Below, piece by piece: positions 3,823 to 43,320 of a stretch of 64,000 bases of DNA. The DNA is from Escherichia coli (lineage in GTDB: Bacteria > Pseudomonadota > Gammaproteobacteria > Enterobacterales > Enterobacteriaceae), in NCBI RefSeq assembly GCF_003790525.1, contig NZ_CP033635.1; one strand, written 5' to 3'. The first letter of the stretch is position 1, and each line of letters starts with the position of its first letter. The notes under the pieces were generated by a model. It was not told the origin of the DNA, searched no databases, and saw only the letters and a program-made list of their open reading frames with translations. The position numbers were made by a program, and so were the translations under genes.

Positions 3823-5139
3823 ATGGACTCCACGCTCATCTCCACTCGTCCCGATGAAGGGACGCTTTCGTTAAGTCGCGCCCGACGAGCTGCGTTAGGC
3901 AGCTTCGCTGGTGCCGTCGTCGACTGGTATGATTTTTTACTCTATGGCATCACCGCCGCACTGGTGTTTAATCGCGAGTTTTTCCCGCAAGTAAGCCCGG
4001 CGATGGGAACGCTCGCCGCATTTGCCACCTTTGGCGTCGGATTCCTTTTCCGTCCGCTCGGCGGTGTCATTTTCGGTCACTTTGGCGACCGACTGGGACG
4101 TAAGCGCATGTTAATGCTGACCGTCTGGATGATGGGCATCGCGACAGCCTTGATTGGTATTCTTCCTTCATTCTCGACCATTGGGTGGTGGGCACCTATT
4201 TTGCTGGTGACACTGCGTGCCATTCAGGGATTTGCCGTCGGCGGCGAATGGGGAGGCGCGGCGTTGCTTTCCGTTGAAAGTGCACCGAAAAATAAAAAAG
4301 CCTTTTACAGTAGCGGTGTACAAGTTGGCTACGGTGTAGGTTTACTGCTTTCAACCGGACTGGTTTCATTGATCAGTATGATGACGACTGACGAACAGTT
4401 TTTAAGCTGGGGCTGGCGCATTCCTTTCCTGTTTAGCATCGTACTGGTACTGGGAGCATTGTGGGTGCGCAATGGCATGGAGGAGTCCGCGGAATTTGAA
4501 CAACAGCAACATTATCAAGCTGCCGCGAAAAAACGCATCCCGGTTATCGAAGCGCTGTTACGACATCCCGGTGCTTTCCTGAAGATTATTGCGCTACGAC
4601 TGTGCGAATTGCTGACGATGTACATCGTTACTGCCTTTGCACTTAATTATTCAACCCAGAATATGGGGTTACCGCGCGAACTTTTCCTCAATATTGGTTT
4701 GCTGGTAGGTGGATTAAGCTGCTTGACAATTCCCTGTTTTGCCTGGCTTGCCGATCGTTTTGGTCGCCGCAGGGTTTATATCACAGGTGCGTTAATCGGA
4801 ACGTTGAGCGCATTTCCTTTCTTTATGGCGCTTGAAGCACAATCTATTTTCTGGATAGTTTTCTTCTCCATAATGCTGGCAAACATTGCGCATGACATGG
4901 TGGTGTGTGTGCAACAACCGATGTTTACCGAAATGTTTGGTGCCAGTTATCGCTATAGTGGTGCTGGAGTCGGTTATCAGGTCGCCAGTGTGGTTGGCGG
5001 TGGATTTACACCTTTTATTGCCGCTGCACTCATCACTTACTTTGCCGGGAACTGGCATAGCGTCGCCATTTATTTGCTGGCTGGATGTCTGATTTCCGCA
5101 ATGACCGCTTTGTTGATGAAAGACAATCAACGCGCTTGA
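3823..5139 (+). CDS. shiA: shikimate transporter, MFS metabolite:H+ symporter family
   Basis: 438 aa ORF with MFS signature (GHFGDRLGRKRML) and 12-TM composition; conserved synteny. Confidence 0.9.
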   Translation: MDSTLISTRPDEGTLSLSRARRAALGSFAGAVVDWYDFLLYGITAALVFNREFFPQVSPAMGTLAAFATFGVGFLFRPLGGVIFGHFGDRLGRKRMLMLTVWMMGIATALIGILPSFSTIGWWAPILLVTLRAIQGFAVGGEWGGAALLSVESAPKNKKAFYSSGVQVGYGVGLLLSTGLVSLISMMTTDEQFLSWGWRIPFLFSIVLVLGALWVRNGMEESAEFEQQQHYQAAAKKRIPVIEALLRHPGAFLKIIALRLCELLTMYIVTAFALNYSTQNMGLPRELFLNIGLLVGGLSCLTIPCFAWLADRFGRRRVYITGALIGTLSAFPFFMALEAQSIFWIVFFSIMLANIAHDMVVCVQQPMFTEMFGASYRYSGAGVGYQVASVVGGGFTPFIAAALITYFAGNWHSVAIYLLAGCLISAMTALLMKDNQRA

Positions 5140-8205: not shown

Positions 8206-8281
8206 TGGCTCCTCTGACTGGACTCGAACCAGTGACATACGGATTAACAGTCCGCCGTTCTACCGACTGAACTACAGAGGA
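8206..8281 (-). tRNA. asnW: tRNA-Asn (GTT anticodon)
   Basis: 76-nt reverse complement of the tRNA-Asn sequence also present at 10030 and 12439; ends in CCA. Confidence 0.95.
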
Positions 8282-10029: not shown

Positions 10030-10105
10030 TCCTCTGTAGTTCAGTCGGTAGAACGGCGGACTGTTAATCCGTATGTCACTGGTTCGAGTCCAGTCAGAGG
10101 AGCCA
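10030..10105 (+). tRNA. asnU: tRNA-Asn (GTT)
   Basis: TCCTCTGTAGTTCAGTCGGTAGAACGGCGGACTGTTAATCCGTATGTCACTGGTTCGAGTCCAGTCAGAGGAGCCA. Confidence 0.95.
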
Positions 10106-37270: not shown

Positions 37271-38628
37271 TTAAAGTTGTTATCGCGCTTCTTGTTATCG
37301 TGATAGTTGCTCGCTTAATCCTGAAAGGATATCGTGCAGAACCCGTGCTTTTTATTGCCGGGCTTGCGCTGATGGTTTGTACCTGGTTTACCGGTTGGGG
37401 CACAGTGTTACCGAAGGGCGTGTCCGGTACAGGAATTAGTTTTCTTGATCCTTTCGAAGTCATGCGCAATTTATTCAGTACCCGTGCGGCTGATCTCGGT
37501 CTGATGATTATGACCCTGATGGGATTTGCGCATTACATGGACCATATCGGTGCGAATGAAGCGGTTGTCCGTGTGGTAACCCGGCCATTACGGACATTAC
37601 GTTCCCCCTATGTTCTGCTTTTTTTCTCTTATCTTTTCGCCAGTCTTCTTCAACTGGCTATCCCCTCAGCTACCGGACTTGCTGTTTTACTGATGGGAAC
37701 CATGTTTCCTATTATGCTCGGACTCGGGCTGTCAGCAGCGTCTGCCGCAGGGGTAATTGCCACCTCTCTTGGTGTGGCGTACACACCGACAGCCATTGAC
37801 GCCATACGAGGCTCTGAAGCGGTAAATATGGATGTGGTGGAGTATGTTGTCTATCATCAGGGGCCTGCTGCTCTGGCGACTGTTCTGATTGTCGGTATCA
37901 GCCACTTTTTCTGGCAGAAACACTGTGATCGTAAAGCTGGAACATTACCTCATGAAATTGGTACGACAACGGTCATAAAAGCAGGCAGTACGCCGGCTTA
38001 TTATGCTCTGCTACCTATGCTACCGATCCTGATGGCCGTTGGCTCATCGGAGATTTTTGTCACCGGAATTAATCTCAATATCATTACGATTGTTCTTATC
38101 TCAATGGCAATTTGCATGCTGATCGAATGGGTCCGTAAATGTGATCTGAAAGCTGTATGTGACGGGTTTACCCATTTCCTGAAAGGAATGGGGACAGCAT
38201 TTACCGGCGTGGTGGGCTTACTGGTGGCCGCAGGTGTGTTTGCTCATGGGATTAAAAGCATTGGCGCGATAGATCAATTAATTTTGATGGCAGAGCACGT
38301 TGGGTTACCCCCTTTTGCGATGGGCATCGTTTTTGCTCTGGTTACACTGGCTGCAGCTGTCATTATGGGATCGGGCAATGCGCCATTTCTGGCTTTTGTT
38401 GAACTGATACCACAAATCGCTGCCAGCATGGGCGTGAATGCCATATCGATGATCCTGCCTATGCAGCAGGCTTCCCATATGGGGCGTGCGATGTCTCCCG
38501 TATCTGGCGTGGTTATAGCGGTTTCCAGTGGAGCAAATATAACTCCCTTCGAAGTGGTAAAACGCACTGCTTTACCCCTGATAGTTGGTTTTGTTTTTCA
38601 CTCTGCGATTATCGGTATTTTTTATTAA
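37267..38628 (+). CDS. DcuC-family C4-dicarboxylate transporter paralog
   Basis: 453 aa multi-[19 protein letters not shown] and [10 protein letters not shown]…SPFEVVKRT motifs; start overlaps the peptidase stop. Confidence 0.8.
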
Positions 38629-38818
38629 CTTGTTTTAGATTGTCATCCTCCACGCCCAGAAGGATGTGGATTCCTGCTAATCAGGCTATTGCCGGAATCA
38701 TTTCGGTGGGCTCCTGCTTAAACAAAAGGCCTGACTGCACCATCTCTTTACAGGCAAGTACGGCGTGCCCTGCAGCTAAAATATTACGGGTGCCGTTTAC
38801 ATCGGCGCTCGCTGCATA

Positions 38819-39900
38819 TGTGCGCCGGGCATGGCGCGTAGCGCCGTGACTGGCGCTGTTCTTCAACTGTGGTGGCTGAAGAACGACTAAGAGGTGAAAG
38901 TCCTCCACACACCCGGTGAGGGGAAGTGTTAGCGGAAGGCAAGGGTGTTCATCGCGAGGTGAAATCTGAAGGAAGCCGGATGCAAAATGCTGGCCTGACG
39001 AACAGGAAGCGGTTAAGGCGGCGCAGCAGGGTAAGGTGGCACAAATCACCAAAGCCCGATACTCACACGGAACGCTGTGACGTAAAGCCGACAGGCATAA
39101 GCAGGAAAGTCGCGTGAATTACCCCGGGAGATCTGTCGCCCTGCCAGTGTGCTACCGGTGCCGTGAGGCGCCGGGATGGGGCGGCAGAAGTCAGCCGACG
39201 CCGTAGTAGTGCTGCAAAACCGGCAGCATGAAGGGCCGAACATGATTAACTGTGATTAGGACATCCGAACCCGATGATGATTAATGAAGCACACGCGCAG
39301 GCAACTGCGGCCAGCGGCAGAGGAGACGGACAGTATCCGTCAGGGCTGCATGATGGCGCTGAAATCAGCACGGCGGCGGGTGGGCAAACGAAAGCGGAAG
39401 TGCCGCTGACGATGGAAGCGGTGATAACGAGAGAAAACCTGATGCTGGCTTATCAGCGCGTGGTGGAAAACAAAGGTGTGTCGGAGTTGAAACCGTGGCT
39501 GAAGAAGAACTGGCGCAGCGTATGGCAGGTATTGATTGACGGAAACTACCAGCCGCGGGCAATACGCCGGATGGATATCCCGAAGCCGGATGGCGGCGTG
39601 AGAACCTTAGGCATCCCGACGGTGGTGGACAGGCTTATCCAGCAGGCGATAGCGCAGCAGTTAAGCGCCATCGTGGACACAGCTTCTGCCGCTACGCAGA
39701 CGACTGCAACATCTACGTAAGCAGCCGGAAAGCGGGCGACCATCTGCTGAAGGACATCAGGGCGTTCGTGGAGAGCAAACTGAAACAGAAGGTGAATGAG
39801 AAGAAGAGCGCGGTGGCGCGCCCGTGGGAGCGGAAGTTGTGGGCTGACAGTGACGGACCGTGCTGCTTCACCAAACGCCTTGGACGGCAGGCGGAACTTG
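38819..39900 (+). mobile_element. truncated group II intron: GUGCG 5' end, structured GC-rich domain I region and a degraded intron-encoded reverse transcriptase
   Basis: GTGCGCCGGGCATGGCGCG… at 38819; ORF 39274..39720 has RT domain 0-2 residues (IPKPDGGVRTLGIPTVVDRLIQQAIAQ); a YADD motif appears out of frame downstream. Confidence 0.6.
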
Positions 39901-40243
39901 GATCGTTACGTACTTGAAAAGTGGATCAACAAGAGGGTTCAACGAGACTGGGGAGTTATATTTCTTTCTCAAGGTCCGGCATTTATCTCTTCCACATGAA
40001 ATCTCGATATAAAGTCAGACACGGATGTCCTACTGAAAGCGGGGGGAAGTATGGTGATAGAGGTCAGCGGGAACCTATCCATAAAAGTCACTCATTACAC
40101 TAAAAAATATGTGCATATTATTTGCGTGCAATTAAATTTTGCAAAATCGAATTAGCATAATTTTTTTTGATAGAAGTCAAATAAACATAATGGAAAAAGT
40201 TTAAATATTTATATTGTATAAACTTCAGACAAAAGGAGGAGTT

Positions 40244-41275
40244 ATGAATAAAATAAAAGGTATAACAGTAATGGCAGCCTTCGCATTGTGTATAGGATAT
40301 GCTCACGCTGAATCTCAAACGCCAATACGCCTTGTAATTCATGGTGGAGCTGGCACCATAACAAAAGATACTATTACACCTGAACAAGAAAAACAATACA
40401 GAGAAAAGTTAACAGATGCACTAAATGCTGGGTATGCTGTGCTTAATAGTGGAGGAAGTAGCCTTGATGCTGTTCAGCGTGCAATTAATGTTATGGAGGA
40501 CTCTCCCCTCTTCAATGCTGGAAAAGGCGCTGTCTTTACTCATGATGGCAAAAACGAACTTGATGCTGCAATTATGGATGGAAAAACCAAAATGGCCGGA
40601 GCCGTTGCAGGAGTGACGACCATAAAAAACCCTATAAACGCTGCTTATGCAGTTATGACTAAAAGCCCTCATGTATTAATGATCTCTAATGGTGCGGAAC
40701 TATTTGCAAAAGAGCAAGGCTTAGTTATGGTTGAGCCAGCATATTTCAAAACTGATTTCCGTTGGCAACAGCTACAGAACGCTTTAAAAGACGAAAAAAT
40801 AACCCTTGATCATAATGGTAAATCAGCATCTCTTTTACTCCCCCCAAAGAACTACGACTATAAATATGGAACTGTTGGAGCAGTCGCGTTGGACAAAGAT
40901 GGTAATCTGGCAGCTGGAACATCAACAGGAGGTATGACAAATAAACGTTACGGACGCGTAGGTGACTCGCCAATAATTGGAGCAGGAACCTATGCCGATA
41001 ATAATACCGTTGCTGTTTCTGCTACAGGTACTGGAGAAATGTTTATTAGAACTTCAACTGCATACAATATTGCTGCTCAGGTGAAATATAAAAATACACC
41101 ATTGAAAGAAGCAGCTCAAAATGCGCTTGATGAAGTTAAAAACATTAATGGTAGTGGTGGTGTCATTGTTCTAGATAAGAATGGTAATTATACTATGAGT
41201 TTCAATACAGAAGGGATGTATCGTGGAACTATCGGCAACGATGGTAAAGCTATCGTATCAATTTATGAACAATAG
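40244..41275 (+). CDS. secreted plant-type asparaginase / isoaspartyl peptidase (Ntn hydrolase)
   Basis: ORF 40214..41275; signal peptide after MNKIKG; GGAGT…TSTGGM…GDSPIIGAG motifs; AGGAGG before the ATG at 40244. Confidence 0.8.
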   Translation: MNKIKGITVMAAFALCIGYAHAESQTPIRLVIHGGAGTITKDTITPEQEKQYREKLTDALNAGYAVLNSGGSSLDAVQRAINVMEDSPLFNAGKGAVFTHDGKNELDAAIMDGKTKMAGAVAGVTTIKNPINAAYAVMTKSPHVLMISNGAELFAKEQGLVMVEPAYFKTDFRWQQLQNALKDEKITLDHNGKSASLLLPPKNYDYKYGTVGAVALDKDGNLAAGTSTGGMTNKRYGRVGDSPIIGAGTYADNNTVAVSATGTGEMFIRTSTAYNIAAQVKYKNTPLKEAAQNALDEVKNINGSGGVIVLDKNGNYTMSFNTEGMYRGTIGNDGKAIVSIYEQ

Positions 41276-42249: not shown

Positions 42250-43320
42250 TTCTGGACCAGAAAGGAGCCTGTACATAGATTTGTGTAATTGCCTGATTTT
42301 GATATGTTCAATTCACCTTCAAATGAAGGTGAATTTATGGCCGACAAACAATTGCAGGCTCTGGCTAACGAACTGGCCAAAAATCTCAAAACTCCTGAAG
42401 ATCTCAGTCAGTTCGATCGCCTGCTCAAGAAAATCAAAGTTGAGGCTGCTCTCAACGCTGAACTGACTCACCATCTGGGACATGAAAAAAATCAACCCAA
42501 ATCGGGAACCAACTCCCGTAATGGCTATTCCACGAAAACCGTCCCACTACCGACGGGCCGATGGAATTACGTACTCCACGTGATCGTGATGGTTCCTTCG
42601 AACCACAACTGGTGAAGAAAAATAAGACCTGCATTATCGGCATGAACAACCAGATCCTGGCGCTGTATGCCAGAGGGATGACTACTCGCGAAATTACCTC
42701 AGTCTTCAAAGAAATGTACGATGCAGACGTTTCTCCGGCGCTGATATCGAAAATCACCGATGCCGTAATCGACCAGGTTGTAGAATGGCAAAACCGTCCT
42801 CTGGATGCGATTTATCCCATTGTTTATCTTGACTGTATTGTCCTGAAAGTACGGCAGGACAGCCGGGTTATCAGCAAAGCGGTGTTCCTGGCTCTGGGTA
42901 TTAACCTTGATGGTCAGAAAGAGCTGCCAGGTATGTGGCTGGCCGAAAATGAAGGTGCAAAGTTCTGGCTGAATGTACTGACGGAACTGAAAAATCGCGG
43001 CCTGAACGATATCCTTATCGCCTGCGTGGACGGCCTGAAAGGCTTCCCGGAAGCGATTAATGCCGTCTACCCGGAGACGCAGCTCCTGTTGTGCATAGTA
43101 CATATGGTACGCAACAGCCTGCGGTTAGGGCGTGGAAAGACTATAAAGCGGTAACCCGTGACCTGAAACAGGTTTACCACACAGCCACGGAAGAAGGCGC
43201 GTTGCAGGCGCTGGATGCGTTCGGGAAGGAATGGGATGCACGGTACCCGCAGATAAGTCGCAGCTGGCAGGCAAACTGGCCGAATGTTGCCACCTTCTTC
43301 GTGTACCCGGAGGCGAGCCG
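42250..43320 (+). mobile_element. IS256-family insertion-sequence remnant; transposase frameshifted and C-terminally truncated
   Basis: ORFs 42289..42615, 42561..43154 and the first part of 43091..44095 together give a mutator-type transposase (…IYPIVYLDCIVLKVRQD…WLNVLTELKNRG…). Confidence 0.75.

Follow-up and report, generated by a model that had tools for sequence, protein, structure and literature searches.

The window (the whole stretch of E. coli DNA analysed, 64,000 nucleotides long) contains, at 38820-39838 (+), the inactive remains of an E.c.I6-family intron, which belongs to bacterial class C (group IIC); to this reading we assign a probability of roughly 95%. The element is a published and annotated, decayed class C group II intron fragment, ordinary and already known. 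It corresponds to the 5′ 1389 nt of a 1919-nt intron, shrunk to 1019 nt by two internal deletions. The GTGCG 5′ end at 38820 aligns with the 5′ ends of four independent full or near-full copies, the upstream flanks of which are all unrelated, and comparison with the full intron shows that homology stops at 39838. Nucleotide identity to the intact intron is 94.4% for window 38820-39687 (intron nt 1-893) and 98.8% for window 39671-39838 (intron nt 1222-1389), and past intron nt 1389 no further alignment of the window to the 1919-nt intact copy was found. An earlier reading of the letters alone (the sequence-only reading) had proposed a truncated group II intron at 38819-39900, immediately downstream of a DcuC-like gene. 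An intron is indeed present within these bounds, but it starts at 38820 and ends at 39838, the last ~60 nt of the proposed interval being a scrap of IS66 tnpB and a scrap of a phage-plasmid gene. It does lie downstream of dcuC, although "immediately" is approximate: the dcuC stop is at 38628, and the 191 nt between stop and intron are mostly an IS609-like tnpB remnant. The contrast in GC content that had been pointed out is real, the remnant (38820-39838) having 58.2%, dcuC 48.2%, the downstream gene 39.8% and the spacer in front of that gene 22%.

Table 1 Features of the intron remnant and its flanks, in window positions. IEP, intron-encoded protein; L002 and L003, loci on plasmids NZ_AP028825 and NZ_AP022088.
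Feature	Position	Strand	Basis
IS609-like IS200/IS605-family 3′ remnant, the intron's 5′ exon, antisense	38637-38819	-	Nucleotide identity, BLASTP
9-bp hairpin ending 8 nt upstream of the intron, the usual position of a class C target stem-loop	38787-38811	+	Fold
Intron ribozyme 5′ part: GUGCG end, domains I-III and 5′ side of domain IV up to the IEP start codon	38820-39273	+	Rfam; near-identity to the L002 intron
IEP N-terminal piece, residues 1-143 of 462 (N-terminal extension, partial RT-0, RT-1)	39274-39678	+	tblastn, TIGR04416
Junction of the 346-nt deletion, at the one copy left of the 9-nt direct repeat TCGTGGACA	39671-39679	+	Alignment with L003 and L002
IEP residues 257-312 (RT-5 YADD, RT-6), out of frame with the upstream ORF	39672-39838	+	tblastn, TIGR04416
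IS66-family tnpB (accessory protein) scrap adjoining the truncation point, outside the intron	39839-39887	+	Nucleotide identity, translation
3′ scrap of a "baseplate protein" gene, outside the intron	39882-40094	+	Nucleotide identity

Models of the intron RNA and of the IEP both match strongly, in agreement with the truncated group II intron first proposed and contrary to the outcome that would have refuted it, a lack of significant matches to either kind of model. A covariance-model search with Rfam gave complete model matches to RF02001 (group-II-D1D4-3) at 38948-39117 (+), with 140 bits and an E value of 2.8e-30 (gathering score 32), and to RF01998 (group-II-D1D4-1) at 39152-39236 (+), with 72 bits and an E value of 2.8e-12 (gathering score 35). 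Over 38000-41000 at E ≤ 1, these two were the only families detected. The model for domains V and VI (RF00029) had no match in the same segment at E ≤ 1, nor anywhere in the window at its gathering score, because the remnant is truncated at intron nt 1389; in the intact relative L002, RF00029 matches domains V/VI at 4851-4922 of that locus. The loss of the 3′ domains, which the sequence-only reading had held to be probable, is therefore confirmed both by the absence of D5/D6 and by the alignment to full copies, which ends at nt 1389. As domain V, domain VI and the 3′ splice site are missing, the window copy is classed as a remnant and not as a complete member. Directly after GTGCGCC, at 38827-38845, the window carries a 19-nt insert, GGGCATGGCGCGTAGCGCC, which is able to form a small GGCGC/GCGCC hairpin. 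This insert is also found in intact plasmid copies, and the CFT073 E.c.I6 reference is without it (L004 1509-1530).

Of the 462 residues of the IEP only 1-143 and 257-312 survive, in two frames. The first piece lies in the ORF 39274-39720 (148 aa), which is the PGAP "maturase" WP_001327935.1; it is 91% identical to the full IEP with an 8-residue gap (tblastn), and the ORF matches NCBIfam TIGR04416 at profile positions 2-93 with an E value of 2.4e-22. The second, beginning RGHSFCRYADDCNIYV..., is encoded in another frame by 39672-39839, with 95% identity (tblastn) and a TIGR04416 match at profile positions 205-256 with an E value of 2.1e-10. TIGR04416 is the NCBIfam equivalog "group II intron reverse transcriptase/maturase" with a cut-off of 300 bits, and while both IEP fragments match this model, both score far below that cut-off.

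Three lesions separate the remnant from the intact intron. A 24-nt in-frame deletion near 39476 removes the eight residues AAGVDNLS of RT-0. A 346-nt deletion, at both edges of which the intact sequence carries TCGTGGACA, removes IEP residues 144-256 (RT-2 to RT-4, by motif reading); as 346 is not a multiple of 3, the stretch starting RGHSFCRYADDCNIYV..., YADD included, is shifted out of frame. Finally, the intron is cut short at nt 1389 of 1919. The missing 3′ 530 nt comprise the 3′ half of domain IV, all of domains V and VI, and the code for IEP residues 313-462, where RT-7 and the GIIM domain (maturase) lie. This pattern agrees for the most part with what had been read from the letters, namely an ORF with RT domains 0-2 followed by frame disruptions, loss of central RT sequence and an out-of-frame YADD. 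Alignment to full-length copies shows that residues 144-256 are gone, and tblastn places residues 257-312 in a different frame from the N-terminal ORF. The ORF does contain partial RT-0 and RT-1, but RT-2 is absent by motif reading; similarly, the frame does shift, but through a single event, the 346-nt deletion, the 24-nt deletion being in frame. With no D5/D6 (the catalytic centre and branch site), no 3′ splice site, no RT motifs 2-4 and 7, no maturase (X/thumb) domain and YADD out of frame, the element should therefore be incapable of splicing, reverse transcription or movement. From these missing parts we deduce that the remnant is non-functional, and presumably merely carried with the pepT-dcuC island.

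The extent and class of the parental intron were established on intact relatives. A full copy on the Escherichia fergusonii plasmid NZ_AP028825 (L002 3004-4922) is 1919 nt long and encodes a 462-aa ltrA. The intron ends were set by four independent copies (L002, L004 from CFT073, L005 and L006), which share the 5′ GTGCG and the 3′ ...CCUACUCGAU and have unrelated flanks beyond these ends. Full-length plasmid copies are 94-99% identical to the remnant and are themselves 96-97% identical to the CFT073 reference, which places the remnant in the E.c.I6 family. Assignment to class C was made on the intact relative, which is 91-95% identical to the window fragments. Its 462-aa IEP contains RVT_1 and GIIM only, with no endonuclease domain (Pfam), and scores 407 bits against TIGR04416, above the cut-off of 300. 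Among proteins of known structure, it aligned end to end with the GsI-IIC RT (6AR1, E 2.9e-139), and matched a group II intron RT/maturase (7UIM, E 7e-106), RT-domain fragments deposited as "retron-type RT" (5HHJ and 5HHL, E ~1e-83), LtrA (IIA; 5G2X, E 4e-43) and a maturase reverse transcriptase (6ME0, E 4e-33). To judge from the intact relative, the IEP thus groups with class C RTs and is without an endonuclease.

Insertion a few nt after terminator stem-loops is a hallmark of class C introns, according to PMC1702495 and PMC3522654. The full copies in L002, L005 and L006 lie ~7 nt after strong hairpins (DNA fold, z -5.8 to -8.9, with 0 of 200 shuffles as stable), and the near-full CFT073 copy lies ~5 nt after the grpO terminator hairpin, read by eye from the sequence and unscored. 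In the window, the DNA directly upstream of the intron consists of the last 45 codons of tnpB/insQ on the minus strand (38684-38818, stop at 38681-38683) together with the right end of that element. The segment is ~85% identical at the nucleotide level to the insQ 3′ end in ~4900 E. coli genomes, and the homology stops exactly at the intron boundary. In translation, 36 of 45 residues are identical to K-12 InsQ residues 358-402 (BLASTP, E 1e-22), and PGAP annotates the same piece in E. coli SMS-3-5 as [quoted passage not shown]. The 45-aa piece is too short to have given a match in NCBIfam or in the PDB sequence search, and none was obtained from either. By these alignments, the intron is evidently inserted in an IS609-like tnpB/insQ remnant, in antisense orientation and within the last 183 nt of the latter.

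The hairpin at 38787-38811 has a predicted stability of -7.4 kcal/mol (z = -1.26, with 21 of 200 shuffles as stable), is not followed by a T-run and is not significant alone. With so weak a hairpin and no T-run, class C retrohoming at this site is inferred only by analogy. The 3′ exon is gone, and the original insertion can therefore not be reconstructed; no more intact copy was found at the same IS609-like site in other genomes, the sole variant keeping the 346 nt and having the same truncation. The uninterrupted K-12 insQ site reads ...GCTGTATAT/CCACATACC (...TAT/CCACA), with the antisense target sequence being ...CATTTACATCGGCGTTCGCTGTATAT/CCACATACC. This is similar to the sites of two full copies, ...TTTTTAT/GCACATT and ...TTATTGT/GCACAGA. 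The U(A/G)U found directly 5′ of every copy could pair with AUA in domain I.

On the 3′ side, 39839-39887 is 89-93% identical at the nucleotide level to IS66 tnpB on many plasmids, and its translation matches LWADSDGLCLFTKRLERG of the IS66 TnpB in L002. The following scrap, 39882-40094, is 87% identical over 213 nt to a baseplate gene on ~96-kb plasmids with phage tail genes, where the annotated context reads baseplate, tail tape measure protein, baseplate protein; PGAP marks the scrap as a frameshifted pseudogene. The ORFs 39768-39914 and 39921-40100 had no NCBIfam match, and DNA similarity assigns them to the IS66 tnpB and baseplate scraps. By sequence comparison, the 1.46 kb between dcuC and the next gene is made up of four unrelated mobile-element fragments. 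The PGAP gene order in SMS-3-5 is pepT, dcuC, a partial InsQ/TnpB pseudogene (-), the 148-aa "maturase", a frameshifted "hypothetical" pseudogene, an isoaspartyl peptidase/L-asparaginase family gene, a DUF5339 gene, and IS256-family and IS4-family pseudogenes. What is called "maturase", "hypothetical" and "TnpB" at this locus is in every case debris of pseudogenes.

Several further observations concern the wider neighbourhood. The PGAP annotation of the identical SMS-3-5 sequence places the IS256-family transposase pseudogene (frameshifted) at ~42337-43330 (+) and the IS4-family one (internal stop) from ~43376 (+), and this debris bounds the same island as the intron remnant. Three tRNA-Asn(GTT) genes lie within 4.3 kb, at 8206-8281 (-), 10030-10105 (+) and 12439-12514 (+), one of them inverted; this trio looks like the asn tRNA cluster, an island integration hotspot in E. 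coli. Full-length Rfam matches were also obtained to two Hfq-binding sRNA families, isrC at 51872-51994 (-) with 150 bits and STnc490 at 58604-58727 (-) with 122 bits.

All 1501 bases of window 38600-40100 are identical to the SMS-3-5 chromosome (NC_010498.1 1127045-1128545, reverse strand), and the same 1501 bases are 100% identical in at least 24 other complete E. coli genomes. At least 80% of 38600-40100 is held by about 220 records, and 1237 of 5426 genomes have some intron-family match. Five large E. coli plasmids of 136-184 kb carry the pepT-dcuC-remnant-peptidase-DUF5339 block, one of them being L003 (NZ_AP022088 146779-154624), a conjugative IncFIB/IncI plasmid. The plasmid form has the same IS609 flank, the same 24-nt deletion and the same truncation, but keeps the 346 nt, which leaves IEP residues 1-312 in one frame and gives a remnant of 1365 nt in L003 compared with 1019 nt in the window. 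Within the complete-genome set, the form retaining the 346 nt occurs in only 4 records, all plasmids, and the deleted form in about 216. The 346-nt deletion is a handy marker for the chromosomal versus the plasmid-borne form of the pepT-dcuC island.

These variants are consistent with the following order of events. A full 1.9-kb copy would have retrohomed into an IS609-like element, antisense to its tnpB and a few bases past a stem-loop, with 24 nt of RT-0 lost thereafter. A rearrangement may also have cut off the 3′ 530 nt and brought the IS66 tnpB and phage-plasmid gene scraps alongside, after which the chromosomal lineage probably lost a further 346 nt by slippage or recombination between the two TCGTGGACA repeats. 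As plasmid copies keep the 346 nt and share the other lesions, the 346-nt loss would be the latest step, by parsimony applied to two variants only. This suggests a transfer of the island between plasmid and chromosome that predates the last deletion.

A search of the 64-kb window with the full intron and the IEP (blastn with word size 7, tblastn) returned no other intron pieces beyond the two known, and on the SMS-3-5 chromosome there is no second intron-family place other than this locus. One tblastn match at 14884-15030 was rejected as an intron piece, being due to chance (E 0.81).

We consider it very improbable that the fragment has been co-opted, with its D1-D3 RNA acting as a stable 3′ UTR or small RNA with dcuC, or with the 148-aa RT stub being a functional protein. 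A structured 3′ extension of the dcuC transcript would, if true, explain retention in about 220 genomes. The fragment is oriented as dcuC, and a simple terminator scan found no plus-strand terminator between the two. PGAP calls the ORF a protein ("maturase"), but after residue 143 it is frameshifted nonsense. The locus is 100% identical in many complete genomes; however, this identity is equal in the flanking junk, and its extension there therefore speaks for recent common descent and not for selection. No compensating change accompanies the 346-nt difference in the plasmid variant, and the neighbours are scraps of unrelated mobile elements. We place as little weight on the notion that class C introns home to hairpins in the IS200/IS605 tnpB 3′ region, which, if true, would have one mobile element targeting another. 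Fainter still is the chance that the element is active, whether as one half of a split trans-splicing intron or served in trans by the protein of another copy. Its D1-D3 sequence is almost unchanged relative to intact copies, and some genomes carrying the locus have 2-4 query-matching places. However, neither D5/D6 nor a 3′ splice site was found in the 64 kb, the SMS-3-5 chromosome has a single matching place, and the break falls mid-ORF at RT-7, abutting IS66 debris and not an exon. We reject, as similarly far-fetched, another RT element (retron, DRT defence RT or DGR) or an assembly chimera: the weak secondary NCBIfam matches to retron and Drt families score far below their curated cut-offs, compared with 407 bits for the intact relative against the TIGR04416 cut-off of 300, two group II RNA models match in full, and the same structure is present in about 220 independently assembled complete genomes.

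The decayed E.c.I6-family intron has a published counterpart. Leclercq and Cordaux (PLoS One 2012, PMC3522654) named the CFT073 element E.c.I6, with an ORF of class C and the reference copy in the CFT073 selC island (NC_004431 4320108-4321914), and catalogued a truncated copy in E. coli SMS-3-5, E.c.I6-tr1, with 94/98% identity. The published coordinates, NC_010498 1127307-1127474/1127497-1128304, correspond to window 39838-39671 and 39648-38841 (record = 1167145 - window). By this correspondence, E.c.I6-tr1 is evidently the same element as the window fragment, with nothing substantive different. Since the CFT073 reference is without the 19-nt hairpin after GTGCGCC, the published 5′ limit lies 21 nt inside the 5′ end of the intron. 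That paper does not mention the host site in an IS609-like element, the loss of 24 nt, the part of the direct repeats in the 346-nt deletion, the scraps of IS66 and phage origin, or the plasmid variant that keeps the 346 nt.

Compared with the characterised group IIC introns GsI-IIC (Geobacillus stearothermophilus), E.r. IIC (Eubacterium rectale) and B.h.I1 (Bacillus halodurans), the intact relative is likewise without an endonuclease domain and likewise inserts a few nt after terminator stem-loops. The window copy, in contrast, has lost D5/D6, the RT core and the maturase domain and is no more than a remnant; the hairpin before it is weak and is located within an IS gene, not at a terminator. 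In itself the remnant matters little. It shares the general pattern of the Enterobacteriales survey in PMC3522654, which recorded 111 fragmented group II introns (55 distinct copies), in being a solitary inactivated copy, embedded in degraded mobile DNA, in a genome that has no intact sibling, and it adds one more Enterobacteriales example of group II introns that come in with mobile DNA, soon become inactive and survive as isolated fragments.
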